Of a stretch of DNA of 64,000 bases, positions 2 through 31,847 are shown in pieces (position 1 is the first letter of the stretch; every line of letters begins with the position of its first letter). Origin of the DNA: an uncultured Thermoplasmata archaeon (GTDB lineage: Archaea > Thermoplasmatota > Thermoplasmata > RBG-16-68-12); NCBI GenBank assembly GCA_963768855.1, contig CAVYJM010000011.1, positions 352,001 through 416,000 of the forward strand, in the 5' to 3' direction. The notes under the pieces are model-generated. The model was not told where the DNA came from. It saw nothing but the letters and a program-made list of their open reading frames with translations, and did no database searches. Made by a program: the position numbers and the translations under genes.

Positions 2-82
2 TGGGACGGCTACCAGCGGCTTCGCACGCGGATCGTCGACGCCCTATCGCGGATCCTGCCGAAGCGGGCGAAGCCCGCCTAG
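2..82 (+). CDS. 3' end of a gene entering the window (partial, unknown function)
   Basis: Frame from nt 2 reads WDGYQRLRTRIVDALSRILPKRAKPA-TAG(80-82); its stop overlaps the convergent roadblock stop. Confidence 0.4.
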   Translation, partial: WDGYQRLRTRIVDALSRILPKRAKPA

Positions 83-384
83 GACGTCTTTGCCAGGAGG
101 GCCCGCGCCCGGGTCGCGGTCTCCTCGACCTGCTTCTCGACGTCCGCGGGATGTCCGTCCGTCAGGGCGACGAAGAACACCTTGGACGTGACCACGCGGA
201 TCAGGAGGTTCCCGTTCTCCGTGTGCACGGCGACCTGCTGAGGGGACGGCCCCTTCGTCGTGGAGTAGATGACCTCCAGGGCACCAAGCAGGGTCGCGGC
301 CATCGTCGCGAAGTTGTCCGCGGGCACCTCGTCCGGGAGGACGGAGGCGAGCGGCACCCCGGAGCGCGTCACGACGGCGCACAT
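79..384 (-). CDS. Roadblock/LC7 (MglB-like) domain protein; true start probably a non-ATG codon ~20 codons upstream
   Basis: CAVVTRSGVPLAS...DNFATMAATLLGALE...VAVHTENGNLLIRVV...FFVAL matches the roadblock beta-beta-alpha-beta-beta-beta pattern; frame stays open upstream (LSGGPDELRVLLKGFNGQTGSR), supplying the N-terminal helix. Confidence 0.8.
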   Translation of the reverse strand: MCAVVTRSGVPLASVLPDEVPADNFATMAATLLGALEVIYSTTKGPSPQQVAVHTENGNLLIRVVTSKVFFVALTDGHPADVEKQVEETATRARALLAKTS

Positions 385-11469: not shown

Positions 11470-12306
11470 ATGAAGATCCTGATCGCGGACGACGATGAGC
11501 TGCTGCGGGAGCTCTTGGCGGAGTTCCTTCGGGACCACGGCCACTCGGTCGATCTCGCGAACGATGGGACCGAGGCCCTCGAACGTCTGCGCACAGGCTC
11601 GTACGAGGTTGCGTTCCTCGACTACGCCATGCCTGGCATGTCCGGAATGGAGGTCATCCGCGCCGCGCGCGAGGCGGTTCCGCAAACGGCCTGCGTGATG
11701 ATGACCGGGCACACGAGCGTCACGACGGCCGTGGAGGCGATCAAGTCCGGAGCGAGTGACTTCGTCGCAAAGCCGCTCGAACCAGAGGCGATCGACCGCG
11801 TCCTGGAGAGCGTGAAGACGGCCACCCGAGCGCGGGAGGCGGCCGGGGTACGCTCCCGCGCGAGCGGTCTCTCCCGCCAGCCCGAGATTCGCGCCGCCTT
11901 CCTCACCGACCACGCAGGCCTCCTCATCGCCTCCCGGGTGGACCCGGAAGAGGGCATGGTGGACGGGGATCTCTTCAGCGCGACGCTCGACGTCATCCAG
12001 AACTTCATGCGCACTTCCTTCCCGGTGCTCCGCGGCCGCTCCCTGTCGGCCATCCACCAGGGCGACTGCACCCTCGTGCTCGAGCCCGGCGACCAGGCGC
12101 TCCTCACGGTCCTCGTCCAGGGGCGGGAGACCGAGTCCCTACGGCGTCGGATGCGGAAGGTCCTGCGGGACTTCGAGGTCCAGAACGAAGGGCGACTCCA
12201 AGCCGGTCTCGTCCACACGGACGCGGTCCGTGGAGCGGAGGAGCTGATGTCGAGGATCATGGTCAGCGGCGATTCGCACTCCGCCCGGCCACCGCGCGCC
12301 CCCTAG
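11470..12306 (+). CDS. Response regulator receiver (REC) fused to a longin-like output domain
   Basis: ILIADDD, FLDYAMPGMSG, MMTG, FVAKP intact; C-terminal DLFSATLDVIQNFMRTSFP domain shared with 21208 and 22388 genes. Confidence 0.88.
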   Translation: MKILIADDDELLRELLAEFLRDHGHSVDLANDGTEALERLRTGSYEVAFLDYAMPGMSGMEVIRAAREAVPQTACVMMTGHTSVTTAVEAIKSGASDFVAKPLEPEAIDRVLESVKTATRAREAAGVRSRASGLSRQPEIRAAFLTDHAGLLIASRVDPEEGMVDGDLFSATLDVIQNFMRTSFPVLRGRSLSAIHQGDCTLVLEPGDQALLTVLVQGRETESLRRRMRKVLRDFEVQNEGRLQAGLVHTDAVRGAEELMSRIMVSGDSHSARPPRAP

Positions 12307-17202: not shown

Positions 17203-17390
17203 GGCCGTCCTCGCCGAGAGGATGACCTGGGAGATAAGGAGCTTTCGCCCTCCATCGCCCGGCCGAGCGCCGCGGGTGAAAACGGAACATACTCCGGTCC
17301 GCCTACCGAATGTATTTATCCGCAGCAACCGTTCGCCGTCCCACACCGCTCGGGCCGGGGGGTGCGGGTTCCACGTCGGAGTACATACCA

Positions 17391-18098
17391 CTGGACAGTC
17401 GAGTGCCCACGCGCGTCGCCGGCCTCGATGACCGGCTCGGTGGCGGCATCCCCCGGGGTCACATCGTCCTCGTCGCCGGCCCGCCCGGATCGCTCAAGTC
17501 CACGTTCGCGTACCGGATCCTGTACCAGGAAGCGAAGGAGCACGGCGCCTCCTGCCTCTATCTCTCGATGGAGCAGAGCCGCGCCTCCCTCATCGCGCAG
17601 ATGACCTCCCTGGGGATGGACCCGGAGCAGGTCAAGGGCGTCCACATCATCGACGTCCGCGCCCTCCGCAAGGAGATCGAGGACCTCCGGGAACAGCCGC
17701 GGTGGCTCCTCGGCCTGCGCCGCCAGCTCGGCCGCTACAAGGAGGAGATGGGCTGCGACCTCCTCGCGATCGACAGCCTCGACGCGCTCTACGCGCTCAC
17801 GCCGATGGAGAACCCGCGCAACGAAGTGTTCCATTTCTTCGAGGAGTTGCGGGAGCTCCAGGCAACGACCTTCCTCGTCTCGGAGATGGGCCGCGACGAC
17901 GTGCGCCTCTCGCACTACGGCGTCGAGGAGTTCCTCGCGGACACGATCGTCCACCTGCGCCTCCGGGAGATCGACATCGGGATGAGCACCTCCGTCCGCC
18001 GATACATCGGCGTGGTGAAGATGCGCGGCGTGGACCACGACCTCGACTACTATCCGTTGCTCATTGAGGACGGCGGCTTCGAGATCGTGTCGGAGTGA
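17391..18098 (+). CDS. Single-domain KaiC/RAD55-like ATPase
   Basis: TRVAGLDDRLGGGIP, Walker A GPPGSLKS, Walker B LAIDSL, VVKMRG; start codon uncertain (17391 CTG or 17403 GTG). Confidence 0.88.
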   Translation: MDSRVPTRVAGLDDRLGGGIPRGHIVLVAGPPGSLKSTFAYRILYQEAKEHGASCLYLSMEQSRASLIAQMTSLGMDPEQVKGVHIIDVRALRKEIEDLREQPRWLLGLRRQLGRYKEEMGCDLLAIDSLDALYALTPMENPRNEVFHFFEELRELQATTFLVSEMGRDDVRLSHYGVEEFLADTIVHLRLREIDIGMSTSVRRYIGVVKMRGVDHDLDYYPLLIEDGGFEIVSE

Positions 18099-18119: not shown

Positions 18120-19871
18120 GTGAACCTCCTCGGTGCGGCTCTCTCCCTGGCGGCCTTGGGCGTCAGCGCGTTCCTCGCGGTGTACGTCCTCGGGATGCAC
18201 CCGCGCTCGTTGCCGAGCCGCGCCTTCTTCGCCCTCATGATGACGTTCGTGTGGTGGGACGCCTGCGAGGCGGTCGAGCGGGCGCTGCCCGCCGGGACCA
18301 CGCCGTCCGCGGCCTTCCCGTGGACTCAGGGCGTGTGGCTCGGGATCAGCGCGGTGCCCGCCGCCCTGATGCAGCTCGCCCTCGTGTACCCGGAGCGGCG
18401 ACCCTGGTTCCGGCGCGAGTACCTCCCGCTGATCTACGCCCCCGTGGTCGGGTGGGCCTACCTGATCTTCGGGACCCGCCATCTGATCGCCGGTGTGGCG
18501 GAGGGGCCCCTCGGTCCCGGCGCAGTCGTCGGGGATAGCTACCTCCCCCTCGCTTCGGTCTACGCGGCCTGGTTCTACCTCAGCGTCGTCCTGTTCGCCG
18601 TGAACTGGTGGCGTCTGCGCGGGAGCAACCTCCGCCAGATGCAGGGCGTCGTCGTCCTCGGCCTGCTGGTCGGGTCCGTCCCCGCCGGCGTGACGGAGAT
18701 CTTCTGGCCCCTGATCGACGGATTCTCGGTCCGCCTGGGGCTGGGGTCCCTCTATACGCTCGTCTGGTCCATCTTCCTCGCGTTCGCCATCGCGCGCTAC
18801 CGCTACCTGGTCATCGAGCCCGTGACGGAGTCGCTCGGCGCGACGCGTGCCCGCCATCCGCTCTCCCGCGGGTTCAACTACCTCGTTCTGGAGCCGGGCC
18901 GGGCCGCGGGGATGGGGGCGTTCCGCGAGATCGTCTCGACGACGCCGGGGTTGTGCGTGACGGGCCTCGCGCCGGCTCGGATCGCCGAGCGGTTCGGGCT
19001 CGAGCGGACGCCCGTCCTGTGGATCACGACCGTCTCGGGCGAGGGGCGCACGGTCCGCCCGCAGGGGCTCGACTTCGAGCTCGTGCACACGGTCCTGAAG
19101 TTCCAGCGGGAGAACCCGGGGACCGCGATCCTCCTCGACGATCTGGACTACCTGGCCGCGGTGGACGGGTTCGAGGCGGTCGCCCGCTTCCTGAAGCGTG
19201 TCGCGAATCAGGCGAGTTCCTCGAGCGGCACGCTCATCGTGACGGCGGGCCACGGTACGTTCACGGCGGAGCAGGTCGCGGTGCTCGGCGGTTGCGTCGA
19301 CCATGTCCTCGACATCCCCGAGACCTCGAACGGGACGCTCGCCCCTTCGCGGGGTCACGCCCTCCTCTTCGTGCCGCAACAGGACGTCGGGGGCGTCCTC
19401 GCCCTCGTCGGCGCCAGCCGCGGCCTGATCGTGACCACGGAGCACCCCGCGAAGGCCCGCCGCCGGCTCGGAGAAGGCTTCGACATCCTCTGGATCACGG
19501 AGCATCCGGAGGCAGGGATCCTCTGCGCGCGACCGACGGCGCTCGACACGGAAGCCCGCCGCGCCATCAGCAATCACCTTTCCGCCCATCCGGGATCGGC
19601 CGTCGTCCTAGCGGGGCTCGAGCAGCTGTCCCTCTTCGCGGACTTCCCCGCCCTCCTGTCCTTCGTGAAGGACACGGTCGACGCGGCGTCCCTCCGGGGA
19701 AGCCAGGTCATCGCCGCGGTCAGTCCGAACGGGCTCCCCGCCCGGGAGGTCGCGATGCTCGCCCGCCGCTTGGATGTTCCCGCGGGCTCTTTTGTCAGGG
19801 GTTCTCCGGCTGGAGGGCTGTCCACAGCCGTTCCTGGAAGTCGAACTCCGATTCGAGGACCCGTTTCATGA
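18120..19871 (+). CDS. 7TM sensor (HisKA_7TM-like) fused to two DUF835 (inactive KaiC-like) domains
   Basis: Seven hydrophobic helices ending AIARYRYLVIEP; then PGLCVT..P, PVLWIT, ILLDDLDYL and a second copy ILWITE, VVLAGLEQL. Confidence 0.85.
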   Translation: MNLLGAALSLAALGVSAFLAVYVLGMHPRSLPSRAFFALMMTFVWWDACEAVERALPAGTTPSAAFPWTQGVWLGISAVPAALMQLALVYPERRPWFRREYLPLIYAPVVGWAYLIFGTRHLIAGVAEGPLGPGAVVGDSYLPLASVYAAWFYLSVVLFAVNWWRLRGSNLRQMQGVVVLGLLVGSVPAGVTEIFWPLIDGFSVRLGLGSLYTLVWSIFLAFAIARYRYLVIEPVTESLGATRARHPLSRGFNYLVLEPGRAAGMGAFREIVSTTPGLCVTGLAPARIAERFGLERTPVLWITTVSGEGRTVRPQGLDFELVHTVLKFQRENPGTAILLDDLDYLAAVDGFEAVARFLKRVANQASSSSGTLIVTAGHGTFTAEQVAVLGGCVDHVLDIPETSNGTLAPSRGHALLFVPQQDVGGVLALVGASRGLIVTTEHPAKARRRLGEGFDILWITEHPEAGILCARPTALDTEARRAISNHLSAHPGSAVVLAGLEQLSLFADFPALLSFVKDTVDAASLRGSQVIAAVSPNGLPAREVAMLARRLDVPAGSFVRGSPAGGLSTAVPGSRTPIRGPVS

Positions 19872-20134: not shown

Positions 20135-21196
20135 ATGACCGAGGCGACCCCCGCCCGGAACCGGCCGGCGACCCCCGAGGAACCAGGACTGGAACCCCCT
20201 GATTCGACGGTATCCGGCTCCACCGACGCCGACTTGCAGGCGGACCTGCTTGAGTCGCTCGTCGAGTCGGCGGACTACGTGGACGTCCGGAAACCACTCC
20301 CGGCCCGGAGTGGAGGGGGCCTGCTACTGGCCACCCCCGAGGCGATTCGGGACGCCTTCGTCACCGCATGGGAGGGCCTCTCCCATTCTCTCCATCTGGA
20401 GATCAGCGCGGCGCGCGCGCTCGACGGCGTGAGGGACCTCGTGCTCTACGACATCCCGGATGGGACCCGCAGCACGCTCTCCGTGCCCGCGGCGACGGAC
20501 GTCGAGACGGACGCCGGGCTGTATTGCCTCGCGCTCGTGCACACGCTCGCGTCGCTCGGAGCGGCGAGGACCGTCCTGCTCACGCACACGGTCTACAATC
20601 GCGAGCGCGGGCCCGAGGACACGAAGCGCTTCCTCGAGATCATGGCCCACGGCGTCGAACCCTTCCGCGGGTACACCCGGCGGCACAAGATCCGCGTGCA
20701 CCTCCACGGGATTCACGAGGGCTACGAACTCGGCCCCCTCCTCTCGAAGGCCTTCCCCGTCCCTGCGGCCCCCAAGTTCGATGCCCATTTCCTCCTGGAG
20801 TACGAGGAGGAATGGTTCCTGACCCCGCAGGGTCGCGCCCTGCTGGAGATGCTCCCGGACATCGACGTCGTCGTGCGCCACACGAAGCTCCAGGTGAGCG
20901 GCGGCTGGATCCCGATGAAGATGCGCAAGTCCGCGTACGTGTACTCCCAGAACGGGAGCCTGAACTCGAACTGGTCCTACGACGAGTACGCCTCGATGGT
21001 CGCCGTGGCCTACCTGGCCAAGGTCCTGCACTCCGGCGAGGCCCTGAGCAAGAAGTACGTCTCGATCGACGAGATCAAGGAGCGCTACCAGCAGCGGGAG
21101 ATGCGGCTCCAGACACGGGTCGTGCGGCTCAGGGAGAAACCGCGGAAGCTCTTCGTCGTCGGCTCCGCGACCGGCCTCATCCAGGTCTACGCCTGA
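20135..21196 (+). CDS. Divergent cis-prenyltransferase-fold protein (Rv3378c/UppS-like)
   Basis: YDIPDGTR, TVLLTHTVYNRERG, RRHKIRVHLHG, PDIDVVVR line up in order and spacing with cis-PT motifs. Confidence 0.7.
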   Translation: MTEATPARNRPATPEEPGLEPPDSTVSGSTDADLQADLLESLVESADYVDVRKPLPARSGGGLLLATPEAIRDAFVTAWEGLSHSLHLEISAARALDGVRDLVLYDIPDGTRSTLSVPAATDVETDAGLYCLALVHTLASLGAARTVLLTHTVYNRERGPEDTKRFLEIMAHGVEPFRGYTRRHKIRVHLHGIHEGYELGPLLSKAFPVPAAPKFDAHFLLEYEEEWFLTPQGRALLEMLPDIDVVVRHTKLQVSGGWIPMKMRKSAYVYSQNGSLNSNWSYDEYASMVAVAYLAKVLHSGEALSKKYVSIDEIKERYQQREMRLQTRVVRLREKPRKLFVVGSATGLIQVYA

Positions 21197-21207: not shown

Positions 21208-22326
21208 TCACGAGGCGGCCAGCAGGGCAGTGAGCAGGTCGTCGACGCCCCGGGCGTCTTTCGCCATGCCCCGCCAGTTGCCCAGCGCCTCCGCGTTCTC
21301 CTCTTCGAATTTCTCGACGGCCTCGATGACCAGCCGACGGAGCTGGTCGTTCTCCTCCCCGTCGAGGACGAGGGTGAGGCAGGCATGCCGTCCGCGCTCC
21401 ATGAGGAGCGTGTAGTTGCCATGGCGGATGGACTTGAGCCACTTCCCTCGCAGGGTCGGGAACGACGTGCGCATGAAGTTCGAGATCACGTCGAGCGTCG
21501 CGCTGAACGAGTCCGCGTCGATCATGCGTTCTTCCGGCTGGATTCTTGACCCGATCAGCGTGCCGTCGCTGAAGGTGAGGAAGGCGCCCTTCACATCGTA
21601 GGTCGAAGCCTTCTTCCGCCGGAGGGCGTCGTTCAGCCTCCGGCTGGCGGACGGGCTCGTCGCAAAGAAGATCAGGAATCCGGGGACGGCGAGAAAGGTC
21701 GAGAACAACGGAGGCTGGCCCGGGGAGTCCTCGAGGCCGAGCACCGCGTTCGAGAACGTGCCCGCCAGGAGGGCGGCGACGAAGCCAACGAGGATCGCCT
21801 CGATCCGATGCGCGAGTTTGGGACTCTGGCCGTGGACTTCGAAGACCGTCCGCCCGATTTGGGCCAGAGCGACCAGCCAGCACGCGGCAACAAACAGGAG
21901 CCACGGAAGATACCAATCCAGGTTGTACTGGGGGACCCGCGGGACCGGGCCCGGCGGGAGGGGCGGGAATCCGGCGAACATGTGTGTCGGGAACGAGACG
22001 ATGAAGAACGCGGCGGGGACGAAGACCAGGAGCGACACACGGCGGAACCGGCCGTGGAACGCCATCCCATAGAGGAGCAGGAACACGCTCCCCACGGTGA
22101 GGCAGGTCAGGGAGACGCTGGCCTCGAGCGTCAGGTCCGCACCTGGGGGCATGTTGAAGAAGATCGCATCGCCCAGGGCGTACCCTCCCGTCAGCGTGCA
22201 GAGGAGGACGAAGAACAACTCGGTCCACGTCCGGTACCGCTCCTGATACGTGAGGTACCCCGCCAGGGAGAACCAGATCCCCGCACTGACCAGGGGGGCC
22301 CAGAACAGGAAGTCGTACGCGGACAT
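21208..22326 (-). CDS. 7TM sensor fused to C-terminal longin-like domain (copy B)
   Basis: Seven TM helices starting MSAYDFLFW; C-terminal DSFSATLDVISNFMRTSFP domain. Confidence 0.85.
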   Translation of the reverse strand: MSAYDFLFWAPLVSAGIWFSLAGYLTYQERYRTWTELFFVLLCTLTGGYALGDAIFFNMPPGADLTLEASVSLTCLTVGSVFLLLYGMAFHGRFRRVSLLVFVPAAFFIVSFPTHMFAGFPPLPPGPVPRVPQYNLDWYLPWLLFVAACWLVALAQIGRTVFEVHGQSPKLAHRIEAILVGFVAALLAGTFSNAVLGLEDSPGQPPLFSTFLAVPGFLIFFATSPSASRRLNDALRRKKASTYDVKGAFLTFSDGTLIGSRIQPEERMIDADSFSATLDVISNFMRTSFPTLRGKWLKSIRHGNYTLLMERGRHACLTLVLDGEENDQLRRLVIEAVEKFEEENAEALGNWRGMAKDARGVDDLLTALLAAS

Positions 22327-22387
22327 GCGGGTTCCTCGATTCTTCAGTCCCCGTTGTGTCTTAAGCATTTAGTGTTCGAGTTCGGCC

Positions 22388-23527
22388 TCATGTCTGCTCG
22401 AGGAGGGAGGTGAGCAGCCCGTCCGTCCCGATCGCCTCGGACGGCATGCCTCTCCAGTCCGCGAGGACGGGCTGGTTGTCCCGCTCGTACCCCAGGAGGA
22501 GATCGCGCATGTGCCGGCGCAACTGGTCGTTCTCCTCTCCTTGTAGGATCACGGTCAGGTAGGCGTACCGGCCGCGTTCCATGACGAGCGTGTAGTCCCC
22601 GTGTTTGATCGCGCTCAGCGAACCGCGCAGGGTCGGGAAGGAGGTGCGCATGAAGTTCTGGATCACGTCGAGCGTCGCGCTGAACAGGTCCTGGTCGATG
22701 ACCTTCTCCCCGGGTCGGACCTTCGCGCCGATCAGGGTGCCGTCCGTGAAGATCACGAAGGCCGCCTTGATGTTGTAGCGGCTTGCCTTCCACCGCCGCA
22801 CCGCAACGGAGAACCGCTCCGTGCTCAGAGGCGACAGGGTCACGACCGAGACGATTCCCGGGAGGACGAGCCCGGTGGAGAAGAGCGGGAGGAACTGGTA
22901 ATTCCCGAGCCCGCGCGTCACGTTCGTCAGCCCTCCGAGGGCCAGGGCGAGGAGGGTCGAGACGAGCAGGCCGAGCATCCGGCGGCGGAGCTTCGTCGTC
23001 TGGTCCGCCACCTCCCGATAGGTTCGCAGGAGGAAGTACGCGGCGAGGCCGGCGTAGGCCACCACGCCCACCACCCAAGTGATGAACACGGTCTTGTCCC
23101 AGGAGCCGAGCCAGGGCGGCCCGAACAGCGCGCCGGGCGACGAGTCGAGGGGCTGGATCATGCCCAGGTTCGGGACGAGACCCGCCCACACGAGCGCGAT
23201 GAGGCCGACCGCGGGCACGAACGCGAGCAGGTACCCGGTCCGCATCCTCGTGTAGAAGACGAGGGAGAAGAGGAAGATGAAGCAGACACTGAGGGTGAGG
23301 ACGCTGAAGCCAAGCAGGGCGGCGGTTCTGGCTTGCATCTGGTCCGGCGAAGTGAAGAAGAGGACATCGGCAAAGGCGTACGCCCCGACGAAAATGCAGC
23401 CGGCGAGGAAGAACACCTCGGTCCACGTACGATAGCGGTCGCGATAGACCTGGTAGAGGGCGAGGCCCCACCACACGCCGACCGTGGCGAGGGGCAACCA
23501 CTGCTGGCCGGGGATGGGGAGGGCCAT
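22388..23527 (-). CDS. 7TM sensor fused to C-terminal longin-like domain (copy C)
   Basis: Seven TM helices; shares YRTWTE.FF with copy B; C-terminal DLFSATLDVIQNFMRTSFP domain. Confidence 0.85.
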   Translation of the reverse strand: MALPIPGQQWLPLATVGVWWGLALYQVYRDRYRTWTEVFFLAGCIFVGAYAFADVLFFTSPDQMQARTAALLGFSVLTLSVCFIFLFSLVFYTRMRTGYLLAFVPAVGLIALVWAGLVPNLGMIQPLDSSPGALFGPPWLGSWDKTVFITWVVGVVAYAGLAAYFLLRTYREVADQTTKLRRRMLGLLVSTLLALALGGLTNVTRGLGNYQFLPLFSTGLVLPGIVSVVTLSPLSTERFSVAVRRWKASRYNIKAAFVIFTDGTLIGAKVRPGEKVIDQDLFSATLDVIQNFMRTSFPTLRGSLSAIKHGDYTLVMERGRYAYLTVILQGEENDQLRRHMRDLLLGYERDNQPVLADWRGMPSEAIGTDGLLTSLLEQT

Positions 23528-23628
23528 GGAAACCAAGGGGTAGTTTCCCAACCTTCGCAAGGTATGTTAAAGCCTTCGACGTGATTTTCCGTCGCAAGAA
23601 GAGCCCGGGGCGCGCAACGGCTAAGGCG

Positions 23629-24665
23629 GTGGGTCCGATGCCCCGTCCACGAAGGTCCGGATCGCGGGCGCGGGTCCCGCAGGCCTCAGCGCGGCCTGCG
23701 TCCTCGCCGAGGGGGGAGCTGAGGTGGAGGTCTTCGATCGAGGACCCGCCCTCGGGTCGAAAGAGGCCGATTTCTCCGCAGGTCTGCGGAACTACGCCGG
23801 CCGGGACGCCCTCGAGGAACTTGCGTCCTACGGCGTGCCGGTCCGTCCGTTCGCCACCGCGCAGAAAACGATCCGGCATTCGCCGCGGTTCGCGAACGTG
23901 CTCCATGGCCCCTCCTACTTCATCCTGGCCCGCGGCGCGGGGCCGACCACGGTCGAGCGCCAGCTCTTCGACCGGGCCGTGCGGGCGGGAGCTCGGGTGC
24001 GGTTCGGGACGGCGAAGGATCCTCAGGACGTGGACATCGTGGCCGCGGGACGGCCCACCGGTCCGCCGTCCCTCCTCGGCGTGGGGTTCACGTTCTCGCG
24101 GGAGGGGAGCCCGATGGACGACACGACGCTCTACGCCCTCCTCGATAACTCGATCGCGCCCGCCGGCTACTTCGCCCTCGCCCCGGGGCCTGAGGCTTGC
24201 ACGCTCTACGCCGTCTCCTGGACGGATCTGGATCTGGAGAGCATGCGGTCGCGCGTCGAGGCCTCGCTCCAGATTCCCTGGGTGAGGGAGCTCGTCGGAT
24301 CGAGCCGCCGGCTTCAGCGGATCGAGTGCGGCGCCTACTTCGCGCGGGACCCGATCGCCGATGCGGTGGCCCCGTCGGGCGCGCTCCGGGTCGGAGAGGC
24401 CGCCGGCTTCCTCGATGCGATCGGCGGCTATGGCGTCCGGTACGCGTTGATCACGGGAGCCCTCGCGGCGAAGTCGGTCCTCGACCGGTCCGACTATCCT
24501 GCCCTCCTGCGGCAGGCGTTCGGCACTGAGTTCGAGGAAGCCTTCGCGTTCAGGCAGCAGTTGAACCGCGCGACGAACGAGGACATGGACCGCCTCGTGG
24601 CGTCCATGGGGCCGGAGATGGATCTGGCCGCGTACCAACAGCACCGGTCCTCCCGACTCCTGTGA
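23629..24665 (+). CDS. Geranylgeranyl-reductase-like FAD oxidoreductase 1; no in-frame start upstream of the GxGxxG motif (probable 1-nt indel)
   Basis: KVRIAGAGPAGLSAA at 23652, VGEAAGFLDAIGGYGVRYAL; in-frame TAA at 23622 with no ATG/GTG/TTG before the Rossmann motif. Confidence 0.75.
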
Positions 24666-24706
24666 CCCGCGCAAGCTTATTCTGGGGATCCCACCATCGT
24701 GCCGCG

Positions 24707-25726
24707 ATGGCCGATTCGGTCCGCGTCGCAGGGGCCGGCCTTGGAGGTCTGACCGCGGCACTCGTGCTCGCGCGAGCGGGGCGGACGGTCGAGGTCTTCG
24801 ACCCGAAGACGGCGCTGCTCCCCAGCTCGGGCCCGCACACGGAAGGCATCCGGAACTACCGCAAGTTGGACGCTCTCGAGGAACTGCGGTCCGTGGGCTT
24901 CGATTTTTCGCCGTTCTCGACCGTCCAGCGGACGATTCGCGCCGCGCCGCACGCCCGAACCGAGCTCCTCGGCCCCGCGCACTACCTGTTCCAGCGGGGC
25001 CGTGAACCCGAATCCGTCGATCAGGTCCTCTTCCGTCGGGCCCAGGAGGCCGGGGTCCGGTTCCACTTCGGCGCCTCCCTCGGCGCCGATGATGCAGACA
25101 TCGTCGCGACCGGTCCTCCGAAGGACGAGACCCAGATCCTCGGCGCGGGCTACACGTTCTCGGCCACGGGTAGCTCCCTGACGCGCGACGTCGCATGCGC
25201 CCTCTTCGACAACGAGGTCGCACCAGCCGGATACCTGGCCATCACGCCCGGCATCGACTACCACTCGATCTACAGCGTCTCCTGGTCCGAGTTCGACTAC
25301 GCGCGGCTCCTCGCTCGCGTCCACAAGGCGTTCGAGGTCCCCTGGGTCAAGGCGATTCTCGGGACGAGCACCTGGGTCGGCAAGATCCACGGCCGCGCAC
25401 ATTTCGTCCGAGATCCGATCGCGGACGCGGAGCGGGGCGGGGTGCTGTATGTCGGCGAGGCCGGAGGCTTCCAGGACGCCGTTGCGGGCTTCGGCTTCCG
25501 GTACGCGGCGATGACGGGCGCGCTCGCCGCACGGTCCATCCTGGAGGGCCGGGACTATCGTGGACTCCTGCGCCAGGCCTTCGGCAACGAGTTCGTGGAG
25601 TCCTGGGTCTTCCGGGAGAAGCTGAACGCCGCGACGAACGAGGACTATGACCGGATGTTCGCGGCCCTTGGCCCCGAGATCACCCTCGAGGCGTACGTCG
25701 CCCAGCGTGGCTCCCGCGGGTTCTGA
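24707..25726 (+). CDS. Geranylgeranyl-reductase-like FAD oxidoreductase 2 (tandem paralog)
   Basis: VAGAGLGGLTAA, VGEAGGFQDAVAGFGFRYAAMTG; clearly similar to the upstream copy. Confidence 0.85.
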   Translation: MADSVRVAGAGLGGLTAALVLARAGRTVEVFDPKTALLPSSGPHTEGIRNYRKLDALEELRSVGFDFSPFSTVQRTIRAAPHARTELLGPAHYLFQRGREPESVDQVLFRRAQEAGVRFHFGASLGADDADIVATGPPKDETQILGAGYTFSATGSSLTRDVACALFDNEVAPAGYLAITPGIDYHSIYSVSWSEFDYARLLARVHKAFEVPWVKAILGTSTWVGKIHGRAHFVRDPIADAERGGVLYVGEAGGFQDAVAGFGFRYAAMTGALAARSILEGRDYRGLLRQAFGNEFVESWVFREKLNAATNEDYDRMFAALGPEITLEAYVAQRGSRGF

Positions 25727-29697: not shown

Positions 29698-31629
29698 TCA
29701 GGGACCCGCGACCTCGGTCGGCAGGAGGAGGGAGAACGAGGCGCCCCGCCCCGGCTCGGACGCCAGTTCGATCCGCCCGCCGTGGGCCTCGGCGACGGCC
29801 TTCACGAAGAGCAGTCCGAGCCCGACCCCTTCGCCGTGCGGCTTCGTCGTGAAGAACGGCTGGAAGATCCGGTCCCGGTCCTGCGGCGAGATCCCCTTCC
29901 CCGTGTCCCGCACCGTGACGCACGCCCACTCCCCCTCGCGCCGCAGGGACACCGTCACGGTCCCCTTGTCCGTCGCCTGGTACGCGTTCTTGATCAGGTT
30001 GCCGACCGCCTGGGAGATCTTCAGCGCGTCGACGGTCATCGGGAGCGGCGCGTCGCCGACGTCGAGGTCAAGCGCCACGGCCGGTTTCCGGTAGGCGGCC
30101 ACTTGCTCCGCGGCGGCCCGAAGCAGGGTCGCGAGGTCCGCCTCCTGCCGGCGGATCTCCGTGGACCGGGTGAAGGTCATGATTTCCTCGATGATGCGGG
30201 CCGCGAGGCGCCGCTGGGCGTCGATCCGGTCGAGGCGCTCCCTCGTCGCATCCTCCTGGGTCTGGCGCCGGATGCTCGCGGTCAGCAGGGAGATGTTCGT
30301 CAGGGGCGTATTCAGCTCGTGGGCCACGTACGACGCGGTGCGGCCGATCGACGCGAGGCGCTCCGTCTCGAGGAGGGCCCGTTGAGCCTCCCGAAGGCTC
30401 GTGACGTCCACGAGGGTCGTGAGGATCGTCGGCTCGTCGGCGAGGGTCATCGGCTCGACGAACACGAGCGCGGTCCACGTCCGGCCCGACCTCGTCCGGA
30501 ACCGTTCCTCGACGCCGCGAACGCTCTCGCCCCGTCGCACGGGCTCCAAGATCCGGTCGCGCTGCGCCGCGTCGGACCAGATTTCGAGTTCGGGCGACGG
30601 TCGTCCGAGGACCTCGTACGGGGCGTACTCGCAGGCGCGGAGGAAGCTCGCGTTCGCCTCGATCACCCTGCCGTCCGCGAGGCGCGTGACCGCAGCGGGC
30701 ACCGGGCTGTTGTGGAAAGCCTTCGCGAACCGCTCCTCGGCCTTCCTCCGCTCGCTCTCGAGCCGCTCCGACTCGAGGAACTGTCCCATCCGATCCCCCA
30801 GGTCGGCCATGAGCTCGAGGAGTTGGGGATCCGGCTCGCGGGTGCTCCGGCTGAAGAAGACCATCACGCCGAGGACCCGCGGTCCGCGCCCGGTGATCGG
30901 GAAGGAGAGTCCCTGCCGCAGGCCGAGGTCCGCGCCGGATTGGCCGCGGGCGAAGTGCGTCCGGGGTGTCAGCTCCTCGAGCCACTCGGGGCGTCCGGTC
31001 GCCCAGGTGGTCCCCGGGATCCCGACCCCGCGCGGGACGGCGACGGTCCGGCTCGCGGCCTCGAACTCGGCGGAAGGGAACCCCGGGACGTGCCAGGCCG
31101 CCTGCCACCGCAGGCTCGTGCCCTCGGCGGACGCGATCCACAGTTCCCCGTACTCCCAGCTCGCTTCCTCGCAGACCGCCTGGAGGAGGCGCGGGATTGC
31201 CTCCCGAGCCGGGGCCGAGTCGTTCAGGACCCGGGTCACCGCGAACTCGGTCCGGAGGCGGCGCTCGAGCCGCAGCCGCTCCGTGATGTCGTGGCACAGC
31301 ACGAGGCGCGCGCGGTGGTCGTCGAAGTCGATCTCGCTCGCCAGGACCTCGACGTCGATGATGCTCCCGTCGCGCTTGAGATGCCTCCAGATCCCGATCG
31401 TCGTGGTGCCGCTGTCGAGCCGCCTGACCTCGTCCATGAGCGCGGGGATGTCCTCGGGCGGCCGGATGTCCTTGATCGTCATCCGGAGGAACTCGTTCCT
31501 CGAGTAGCCGTAGTGGGTGACCGCCGCGTCGTTGACGGCGAGGAAGTAGAGGGACTTGACATCGAACACCCACATCGGGAGCGGGTTCTTCTCGAACAGC
31601 AGGCGGTACGACTCCCTGATGAAGTGCAT
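29698..31629 (-). CDS. Cytoplasmic sensor histidine kinase PAS-GAF-PAS-HisKA-HATPase
   Basis: Two PAS domains (AVNDAAVTHYGY; EANASFLRACEY), GAF, H-box VAHELNTPL, N-box NLIKNA, G1 DTGKG, F and G2 GVGLGL. Confidence 0.93.
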   Translation of the reverse strand: MHFIRESYRLLFEKNPLPMWVFDVKSLYFLAVNDAAVTHYGYSRNEFLRMTIKDIRPPEDIPALMDEVRRLDSGTTTIGIWRHLKRDGSIIDVEVLASEIDFDDHRARLVLCHDITERLRLERRLRTEFAVTRVLNDSAPAREAIPRLLQAVCEEASWEYGELWIASAEGTSLRWQAAWHVPGFPSAEFEAASRTVAVPRGVGIPGTTWATGRPEWLEELTPRTHFARGQSGADLGLRQGLSFPITGRGPRVLGVMVFFSRSTREPDPQLLELMADLGDRMGQFLESERLESERRKAEERFAKAFHNSPVPAAVTRLADGRVIEANASFLRACEYAPYEVLGRPSPELEIWSDAAQRDRILEPVRRGESVRGVEERFRTRSGRTWTALVFVEPMTLADEPTILTTLVDVTSLREAQRALLETERLASIGRTASYVAHELNTPLTNISLLTASIRRQTQEDATRERLDRIDAQRRLAARIIEEIMTFTRSTEIRRQEADLATLLRAAAEQVAAYRKPAVALDLDVGDAPLPMTVDALKISQAVGNLIKNAYQATDKGTVTVSLRREGEWACVTVRDTGKGISPQDRDRIFQPFFTTKPHGEGVGLGLLFVKAVAEAHGGRIELASEPGRGASFSLLLPTEVAGP

Positions 31630-31847
31630 CCGACCGTTCCGTGGGCTCTCGGCTTCCCGCCGTTGGCTCGGGAACTCATCGGATGGTATGGGCTCGTTGC
31701 CGGGCATTGGAAAGGGTCAGCCGACCGGCCGTGGCCGCATCGCGCCCGGGGATACCATCCCCCGCGCGCGTATTTCCCCTTTGTGCAGTCGGATAAGGCA
31801 AGCCTAAAGAGTCGGATGGGCTCGCCCCCCATCCCCGGGCCGGGGGA

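Follow-up and report, generated by a model that had tools for sequence, protein, structure and literature searches.

Two adjacent genes in the genome of an uncultured soil Thermoplasmata archaeon encode proteins, here called P0001 and P0002, which are best explained as paralogous membrane sensors with seven helices, of a type that is HisKA_7TM-like but divergent, and whose cytoplasmic tails are predicted to adopt a longin-type fold. The genes lie in a stretch of 64,000 nucleotides (nt) that was analysed as a whole and is referred to as the window (GenBank assembly GCA_963768855.1, contig CAVYJM010000011.1, positions 352,001 to 416,000 of the forward strand; coordinates given without a contig or locus are those of the window). 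Our preferred reading, which we put forward tentatively, is that both proteins are kinase-less sensors with a fused longin platform, likely dimeric, which controls a Ras-like GTPase whose gene lies at another place in the genome. It is carried by the match of the modelled tail to longin domains of solved structure and by the association of the tail's domain family with Ras-family GTPases among genomes of the class. In eukaryotes, the longin fold serves for the docking of Ras/Rab-type switches. Longin domains and expanded sets of Ras/Rab-like GTPases are usually held to be hallmarks of eukaryotes and Asgard archaea; here, one Thermoplasmata genome holds about 17 genes with the predicted longin fold, about 19 Ras-family GTPases and 8 Roadblock genes, and most of its domain copies sit on membrane anchors.

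The receptor pair and its longin-like tail

The two receptor genes are codirectional, with 19 bp between them, and comprise the following features:

21208-22368 (-), P0001, the downstream receptor gene, 386 amino acids (aa) as longest open reading frame (ORF; AlphaFold2 model; 162 homologues)
22388-23560 (-), P0002, the upstream receptor gene, 390 aa as longest ORF (GC content at third codon positions, GC3, of 0.91, coding; 42% identical to P0001)
21655-22326 (-), seven-helix membrane region of P0001, residues 15-238, N-terminus out and C-terminus in (model helices, positive-inside count, invariant columns)
21601-21654 (-), juxtamembrane basic helix of P0001, residues 239-256, after the invariant P239 (helix in the AlphaFold2 model)
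21211-21600 (-), predicted cytoplasmic longin-like domain of P0001, residues 257-386 (DSSP order, VIA-align, Foldseek)
22835-23527 (-), seven-helix membrane region of P0002, residues 12-242 (hydrophobic segments, alignment to the seven helices of the P0001 model)
22391-22798 (-), predicted cytoplasmic longin-like domain of P0002, residues 255-390 (domain profile A2, E 1.9e-72; 61% identical to the P0001 domain)

Both ORFs have a GC3 of the coding type (0.87-0.91; the window overall has 68% GC), and the genes form a probable operon. Because homologues run to 370-375 aa, the true starts, as judged from sequence length, are probably M15 of P0001 (nt 22326) and M12 of P0002 (nt 23527, which is also where the first-pass annotation ended the feature). 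A first-pass annotation, made from the sequence alone, had described the two proteins as paralogs in a non-Asgard archaeon, and both statements held: P0001 and P0002 align with an E-value of 5e-94 in BLASTP, and the homologues and related loci trace to Thermoplasmata. All 162 homologues of P0001 come from metagenomes, those that are named being Thermoplasmata, and the 39 related loci in species genomes belong to metagenome-assembled genomes from soil and sediment assigned to Thermoplasmata or to "Methanobacteriota archaeon". A tandem receptor duplication is present at loci L001-L004, L015-L017 and L021 and on many metagenome contigs with both paralog types, and other relatives have one receptor copy at the locus.

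Hydropathy gives seven hydrophobic segments for P0001, and six strong segments and a weaker first one for P0002. The AlphaFold2 model of P0001, built on 66 homologues (predicted local distance difference test score, pLDDT, 89.5; predicted template modelling score, pTM, 0.82), has membrane helices at residues 20-41, 48-71, 79-105, 110-130, 150-179, 183-213 and 222-236, in agreement with the seven transmembrane (TM) helices, and not fewer, of the first-pass annotation. The inner loops and the tail, on their predicted side, hold 10 lysine and arginine residues and the outer loops 1, which fits an external N-terminus and a cytoplasmic tail. Invariant residues of the membrane part, in the 66-sequence alignment, are T47-W48-T49-E50 at the inner end of helix 2 and Y63 and D67 within this helix. 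The tail, with 25 invariant columns in the same alignment, is more conserved than the membrane part (paralog identity 61% vs 37%), and the same domain is found on a further gene of the window (11470-12306), as expected from the earlier view of a conserved tail on differing sensor parts. Neither HisKA nor HATPase was detected in P0001 or P0002 (Pfam, E<=1), nor was a Pfam or NCBIfam domain of any kind at this threshold; the longin-like domain fills the entire cytoplasmic part, so that the tail is indeed kinase-less.

The membrane part resembles HisKA_7TM (PF16927), the sensor of archaeal histidine kinases (PMC5847659), in being a seven-helix N-terminal sensor, and precomputed PF16927 matches are carried by 9 listed homologues and by the L001 orthologue, several orthologues of P0002 among them; in contrast, P0001 and P0002 themselves have no such match at E<=1, and the output of the receptors is no kinase. 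We make no firm assignment of the membrane part to HisKA_7TM because an hhalign comparison of the receptor family profile with the seven-helix part of P0003, a neighbouring 7TM-DUF835 protein, found no alignment. Specific kinship with G protein-coupled receptors (GPCRs), to whose coupling the receptor-to-longin signalling had been likened at first pass, was not supported: Foldseek matches to GPCRs are weak and at the level of a generic seven-helix bundle (E 2e-3 to 1e-2, root mean square deviation (rmsd) 6-10 Å), and we treat the resemblance as an analogy only.

In the P0001 model, DSSP assigns to the tail strands at residues 257-266 and 271-276, a helix at 285-302, strands at 313-316, 319-325 and 329-337, and helices at 341-363 and 375-384, all preceded by the juxtamembrane helix 239-256. 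This order of strand-strand-helix-strand-strand-strand-helix-helix, which the first-pass annotation had read from the sequence, is present in both AlphaFold2 models (full P0001 and tail alone), as the longin class with its five-stranded antiparallel sheet requires. Residues 238-386 were modelled alone (pLDDT 76) and compared with solved structures by VIA-align and Foldseek. The top 14 matches in VIA-align are all longin domains (Z 10.2-13.2 over 117-132 residues, both C-terminal helices included), the best being Sec22 (3egd_C; Z 13.2, rmsd 2.3 Å, 119 residues aligned); other longin matches are VAMP7, synbindin, SYBL1, AP-3 sigma, sedlin, Ykt6, the CPLANE longin, Lst4 and AP-2 mu, and the Lokiarchaeal longin 8yqg_B matches at Z 9.9. 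The longin alignments reach model residue 149 and thus cover both C-terminal helices. Roadblock proteins (MglC, MglB, LAMTOR and Asgard Roadblocks) match at Z 8-9 over about 95-106 residues, approximately model residues 19-123, the first of this class being the fused C-terminal domain of Rag (9m28_A; rank 15, Z 10.0) and stand-alone proteins appearing from rank 29 (Z 9.1). Foldseek yields the same longin and Roadblock groups, and the 50 best VIA-align matches include neither PAS nor GAF structures. At the level of the model, the longin fold proposed at first pass is thus supported by the structural searches.

Longin domains lack the N-terminal helix of Roadblock and have an extra C-terminal helix instead (PMC10933270). 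We regard the tail as a predicted longin-type domain of about 135 residues because, by this criterion, nothing in it aligns with the N-terminal helix of Roadblock and it ends in a pair of helices; the juxtamembrane helix lies outside the longin and Roadblock alignments, which begin at model residue ~19-21. With the Roadblock/LC7/MglB class the tail shares the strand-strand-helix-strand-strand-strand core and up to 25% identity to MglB in Foldseek matches, and one receptor homologue is labelled Roadblock/LC7/MglB by the Joint Genome Institute (JGI). It differs in that the core only is aligned, over ~95-106 residues, and that two C-terminal helices seem to stand in for the N-terminal one.

At the sequence level, none of the Pfam longin families (Longin, Sybindin, Sedlin_N, Clat_adaptor_s, Fuz_longin_1) matches at its curated threshold. 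Below threshold, Fuz_longin_1 is seen in 5 of 66 members (best E 0.014) and in 1 of 27 (E 0.069), and Robl_LC7 (PF03259; threshold 23 bits) in 2 of 66 (best E 0.12) and in 4 of 27 (0.047); by comparison, the genome's true Roadblock genes reach 24.5-54 bits for PF03259. When the tail is aligned by hhalign to the genome's own Roadblock proteins, the core aligns in register, weakly (P 2.7e-4, probability 41%). By language-model features, the named clusters nearest to the tail are Asgard proteins of 130-140 aa, in part Fuz_longin_1 (scores 0.81-0.84, which we treat as a lead only). A borderline PDB match of the broader profile (positions 50-135, corresponding to P0001 residues ~290-375) was obtained for the cytoplasmic part of the flagellar stator protein MotA (6ysf_E, 8ucs_C; E 9e-4), with the motifs D-V-I-Q-N-F and W-x-G in common with the domain profile. 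The cytoplasmic part of MotA is helical, and we took this match as probably due to chance for that reason.

A large domain family associated with Ras-like GTPases

A search with the tail profile recovered 3310 cluster representatives at E<=1e-3 and 778 at E<=1e-10, and by profile similarity the tail domain belongs to a large family that is unclassified at the sequence level. In the best 150 profile matches, from which architectures were read, the domain begins within ~20 residues of the last hydrophobic segment of seven-helix proteins, of four-helix proteins with two tandem copies and of many single-pass proteins (600-1700 aa) with PKD, CARDB, Big_9 or cadherin-like ectodomains; it also occurs alone in proteins of 135-160 aa and in two or three copies in proteins of 1200-2400 aa. 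The latter giant proteins (P0128, P0161, P0164; G000:C18:136483-143802) combine two to three longin-like copies with CARDB and a C-terminal DUF5915, and a crude hydropathy threshold gave no clear membrane helix in them. Neighbours by predicted structure are receiver fusions and DUF11/CARDB proteins of Thermoplasmatota, Thorarchaeota proteins and bacterial OmpA proteins.

The genome under study encodes 17 genes with the longin-like domain, one of which lies in the window and has it behind a receiver domain:

11470-12306 (+), response-regulator receiver domain followed by a longin-like domain at ~11875-12261 (Response_reg E 1.9e-28; domain profile E 2.7e-42)

Over 100 residues, the tail of this receiver fusion has 60% identity to the domain of P0002. 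Of 41 genomes sampled from the order, this one alone was found to have the fusion, but L047, L049 and L051, three close relatives, have orthologues of it. The gene at 29698-31707 (-) encodes a PAS-GAF-PAS histidine kinase that could be a partner of the fusion. Because the domain comes directly behind the final membrane helix in a wide variety of anchors, and behind the receiver domain at 11470-12306, its position suggests an output role; with the seven-helix and receiver fusions it would be an interchangeable output module that takes the place of a histidine kinase. Longin-like genes are frequently found in tandem, a larger membrane protein being followed by one of 190-210 aa (L057, L059-L061, L063, L070; G114:C10:45872-49876; G135:C53:4718-8777), which hints at heteromeric platforms, and sometimes three longin-like genes stand in a row ahead of a GTPase gene.

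Besides these 17 genes, the genome (G000; 2.87 Mb) has 8 Roadblock genes and about 19 genes for Ras-family GTPases, which show the canonical G1-G5 motifs and E-values for Pfam Ras down to 2.5e-39; examples from the whole set are C6:749251-750072, C6:702465-703094, C7:106450-108233 and C12:41736-42918. This number of GTPases is large for a non-Asgard archaeon, and some relatives have at least 23 matches. Two of the domain genes are followed on the same strand, after 77 and 319 bp, by a gene for a Ras-family GTPase, and another domain gene is 2.3 kb away from one. The association extends to the class. In a sample of 151 Thermoplasmata genomes, in which match counts per genome are lower bounds at the high end, the domain was found in 92, every one of which has the GTPase too; the GTPase was found in 106 altogether, and 45 genomes (families f11, f16, f23, f24) have neither. 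Copy numbers of domain and GTPase vary together (rho 0.92; 0.84 among GTPase-positive genomes). A GTPase gene lies within 1.5 kb of the domain at 9 of 30 loci from the class, and among the matches listed there are at least 24 adjacent pairs of domain and GTPase genes, from 23 genomes of eight families, with gaps of 81-901 bp and mostly of ~100 bp.

Dimers of longin and Roadblock domains are known as platforms for GTPases (PMC3521125, PMC10933270), and the genomic pattern of domain and GTPase is consistent with such platforms. A predicted complex of two longin-like domains of the GTPase-adjacent paralog L054 with the neighbouring GTPase scored 0.62, about the same as the 0.60 of a control with an unrelated chain. 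The GPCR-like coupling of longin domain to GTPase that the first-pass annotation had proposed is plausible, with indirect support only: adjacency and co-variation of copy number speak for it at the level of the family, there is no GTPase gene near the two receptors themselves, and GTPase binding by the tails and a role like that of a guanine nucleotide exchange factor are both putative.

True Roadblock/LC7 genes are located at the start of the window, at 79-384 (-), and at G000:C6:941612-943564 and G000:C3:6628-7780. Two Roadblock genes adjoin an Arf/MglA-like GTPase gene and one is directly upstream of a Ras-family GTPase gene; judged by these gene neighbourhoods, this genome therefore uses both Roadblock and longin-like partners. 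Roadblock as a partner of the receptors, which the first-pass annotation had listed for screening, was not supported.

Proposed mechanism and alternative explanations

In the mechanism we envisage, a signal sensed in the membrane or outside the cell would move the helix bundle, including the loop with the invariant R-x-R-T-W-T-E motif at the inner end of helix 2. This movement would reposition the longin platform, probably a dimer formed either by one receptor with itself or by P0001 with P0002, and the platform may then bind one of the ~19 Ras/Rab-like GTPases and regulate it by recruitment, exchange or GTPase activation. The use of a GTPase by the receptors, the GTPase concerned, the direction of its regulation, dimerisation and the ligand are what we infer here. 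A more far-reaching version appears rather doubtful to us: it would have receptor-to-small-GTPase signalling on one polypeptide, a bundle moved by its ligand switching the longin platform so that a Rab/Ras-like GTPase is loaded or unloaded in trans, as part of a large network in Thermoplasmata in which, in the style of eukaryotes, receptors with longin tails work with Ras-like switches, and which would have evolved outside Asgard archaea.

A number of observations weigh against GTPase regulation by a longin-type tail. The fold rests on prediction (the pLDDT of 76 for the tail alone compares with ~77-96 for the same residues in the full model, the alpha1-beta3 loop having 66-68), and sequence searches with the tail profile gave nothing significant among longin and Roadblock families (Pfam) or their solved chains (PDB). 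Within this genome alone, adjacency of domain and GTPase genes is marginal (P about 0.05), and we relied on the multi-genome data for this reason; there, in turn, the copy-number correlation is confounded by shared ancestry and genome size, related genomes not being independent of each other. The correlation across the class is also little informative for the receptors, since the seven-helix subfamily is confined to part of one order. It is found in 9 of the 151 class genomes, all from the window's own order, and within this order in families f1 (10/10), f4 (9/9), f6 (2/2) and f30 (1/1), and in none of the 18 genomes of f2, f3 and f5. The 39 related loci, read for up to 10 kb to either side of the receptor gene, contain no GTPase gene, nor does this genome have one within 100 kb of the receptors, and the constant neighbour that is inherited together with the receptors is an uncharacterised protein of 353 aa and not a GTPase.

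The locus is part of a syntenic block consisting of DNA ligase, one or more reductase-like flavoproteins, one or two receptor genes, the convergent 353-aa gene, a small ORF, a 7TM-DUF835 sensor, a KaiC-like ATPase and adenylosuccinate synthetase. The relevant neighbours in the window are:

20135-21196 (+), uncharacterised soluble protein of 353 aa, convergent with the receptors (constant neighbour at ~30 related loci; matching phyletic pattern)
23724-24665 and 24662-25726 (+), two tandem overlapping geranylgeranyl-reductase-like flavoprotein genes (weak matches to the NCBIfam geranylgeranyl-reductase family and to Pfam FAD/NAD families; conserved position)
18120-19871 (+), 7TM-DUF835 sensor (DUF835 E 6e-31; HisKA_7TM E 1.7e-9)
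17310-18098 (+), KaiC-like ATPase (Pfam KaiC E 6e-46)

The alternative that survives best, which we nevertheless consider unlikely, is that the receptors work with the 353-aa protein, and perhaps with the flavoproteins, in a sensing of membrane lipids or isoprenoid-type compounds, the tail binding or regulating this enzyme-like protein and no GTPase being involved. The 353-aa protein is the best candidate for a functional associate on genomic grounds, because its phyletic pattern in the order (f1 9/10, f4 8/9, f6 2/2; f2, f3 and f5 0/18) nearly matches that of the receptors across f1-f6, and its gene is their convergent next neighbour also at L044 and L045, where the KaiC/DUF835 pair is missing. 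The flavoprotein genes are divergent from the receptor pair here (the first, 23724-24665, has no recognisable Pfam match for FAD/NAD binding), and in L044 the receptor gene is followed, after 8 bp, by a codirectional FAD_binding_3 gene. Convergent genes are, however, not co-transcribed, and the entire block is syntenic, DNA ligase and adenylosuccinate synthetase included, so that adjacency of the 353-aa gene alone is weak evidence. The 353-aa protein has no Pfam, NCBIfam or PDB sequence match. Its language-model features lean weakly to cis-prenyltransferases (0.82, again a lead only), an assignment without support from sequence: there is no match to PF01255 at E<=10, hhalign against the genome's UppS gives P 0.06 and no PDB match was found. 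We also know of no longin domain that regulates an enzyme of the prenyltransferase type, which counts against such a partnership.

It is quite unlikely, in our estimate, that the longin-like domain is instead a PAS/profilin-like module that binds small molecules or purely dimerises, the receptors then being sensors or scaffolds whose output is oligomerisation or localisation and not a GTPase platform. Longin and Roadblock do belong to a PAS-like/profilin-like structural class with many ligand-binding members (PMC3521125), some longin domains, e.g. those of SNAREs, do not regulate GTPases (PMC10933270), and the frequent tandem arrangement of domain-bearing genes at L057, L059-L061, L063 and L070 would fit heterodimers. 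On the other hand, PAS and GAF structures are missing from the 50 best structural matches, placement behind the receiver domain and behind membrane anchors is that of an output domain, and co-occurrence and adjacency with GTPases would need another explanation.

Very unlikely, finally, is that the tail feeds the neighbouring KaiC-like ATPase and DUF835 hub: the ATPase and the 7TM-DUF835 sensor are 1.3-3.9 kb from the receptors and recur in most related loci, and in L048 a membrane DUF835 gene on the same strand follows a second receptor paralog after 64 bp, but the DUF835 sensor is present in the receptor-free f2 (7/8) and f3 (6/6) and was not found in f6 (0/2), which has receptors, L044 and L045 keep the receptor without KaiC/DUF835, and the pair has a seven-helix sensor of its own and looks self-contained. 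The KaiC-like ATPase and the 7TM-DUF835 sensor are thus probably a system separate from the receptors, and KaiC, another partner named at first pass, does not share their phyletic pattern. The second seven-helix longin paralog of L048, which belongs to another Thermoplasmata genome (L048:9119-11809, +, including the DUF835 gene), lies in an unrelated neighbourhood with genes for glycine cleavage T protein and ferritin.

Significance and comparison with known systems

We found no paper on the family of longin-like tails or on its fusion to seven helices. The longin fold outside Asgard archaea is not new in itself, since a recent preprint notes that about half of the longin/Roadblock proteins of Asgard archaea fall into structural clusters together with proteins of other prokaryotes (10.64898/2026.10.28.762692); this locus adds the fusions to seven helices and to a receiver domain, receptors that have no GTPase gene next to them, and the neighbour of 353 aa that is inherited with them. 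If it is true that the tails control GTPases, ordinary archaea would have a layer of receptor-to-GTPase signalling, with every receptor offering an entry point for tests, and the finding would bear on the origin of the platform logic of eukaryotic GTPases.

The Thermoplasmata host is not known to have endomembranes. With eukaryotic and Asgard longins (Sec22/VAMP7/Ykt6, TRAPP Bet5/Trs23/sedlin, AP sigma/mu, Mon1-Ccz1 and 8yqg) the tail shares the predicted topology and superposes over the whole domain (Z 9.9-13.2), and members of its family adjoin Ras/Rab-like GTPases. The Thermoplasmata domain differs from these in its direct fusion to a membrane anchor or a receiver domain, and in having no significant sequence match to them.

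The closest prokaryotic precedent for a GPCR-like logic is provided by the conservons of actinobacteria, which consist of the sensor kinase CvnA, the Roadblock protein CvnB, CvnC and the GTPase CvnD (PMC12236503) and in which a membrane sensor is proposed to signal via a protein of the Roadblock class to a small Ras-like GTPase. Conservons are, however, four separate proteins of an operon with a histidine kinase as sensor, whereas the receptors described here have a fused platform and no kinase; none of the conservon parts (sensor kinase, Roadblock, DUF742, GTPase) is in an operon with the receptors in the neighbourhoods examined. In bacterial gene neighbourhoods of Group 1 Rup GTPases, a Ras-like GTPase is found beside an unclassified conserved domain with a membrane helix and OmpA (PMC4316618). 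The longin-like domain resembles in structure OmpA proteins from Pseudomonadota and Cyanobacteriota (template modelling score 0.76-0.78), a link by predicted shape only; architecture and domain of life of the host are different, and the receptors have no adjacent GTPase.

Fusion of related modules to signal transduction proteins has been described before. Thaumarchaeal response regulators have a Roadblock-like output domain, NitrOD3 (PMC5847659), and in Asgard archaea NPRL2-like longin domains are reported to be fused to two-component signalling domains (bioRxiv 10.1101/2020.10.19.343400). Set side by side by description, the latter resemble the receiver fusion at 11470-12306 in using a longin-type module in prokaryotic signal transduction, and differ from the present case in their Asgard hosts; here the host belongs to the Thermoplasmata, and the predicted longin-type module is in addition fused to a seven-helix sensor.

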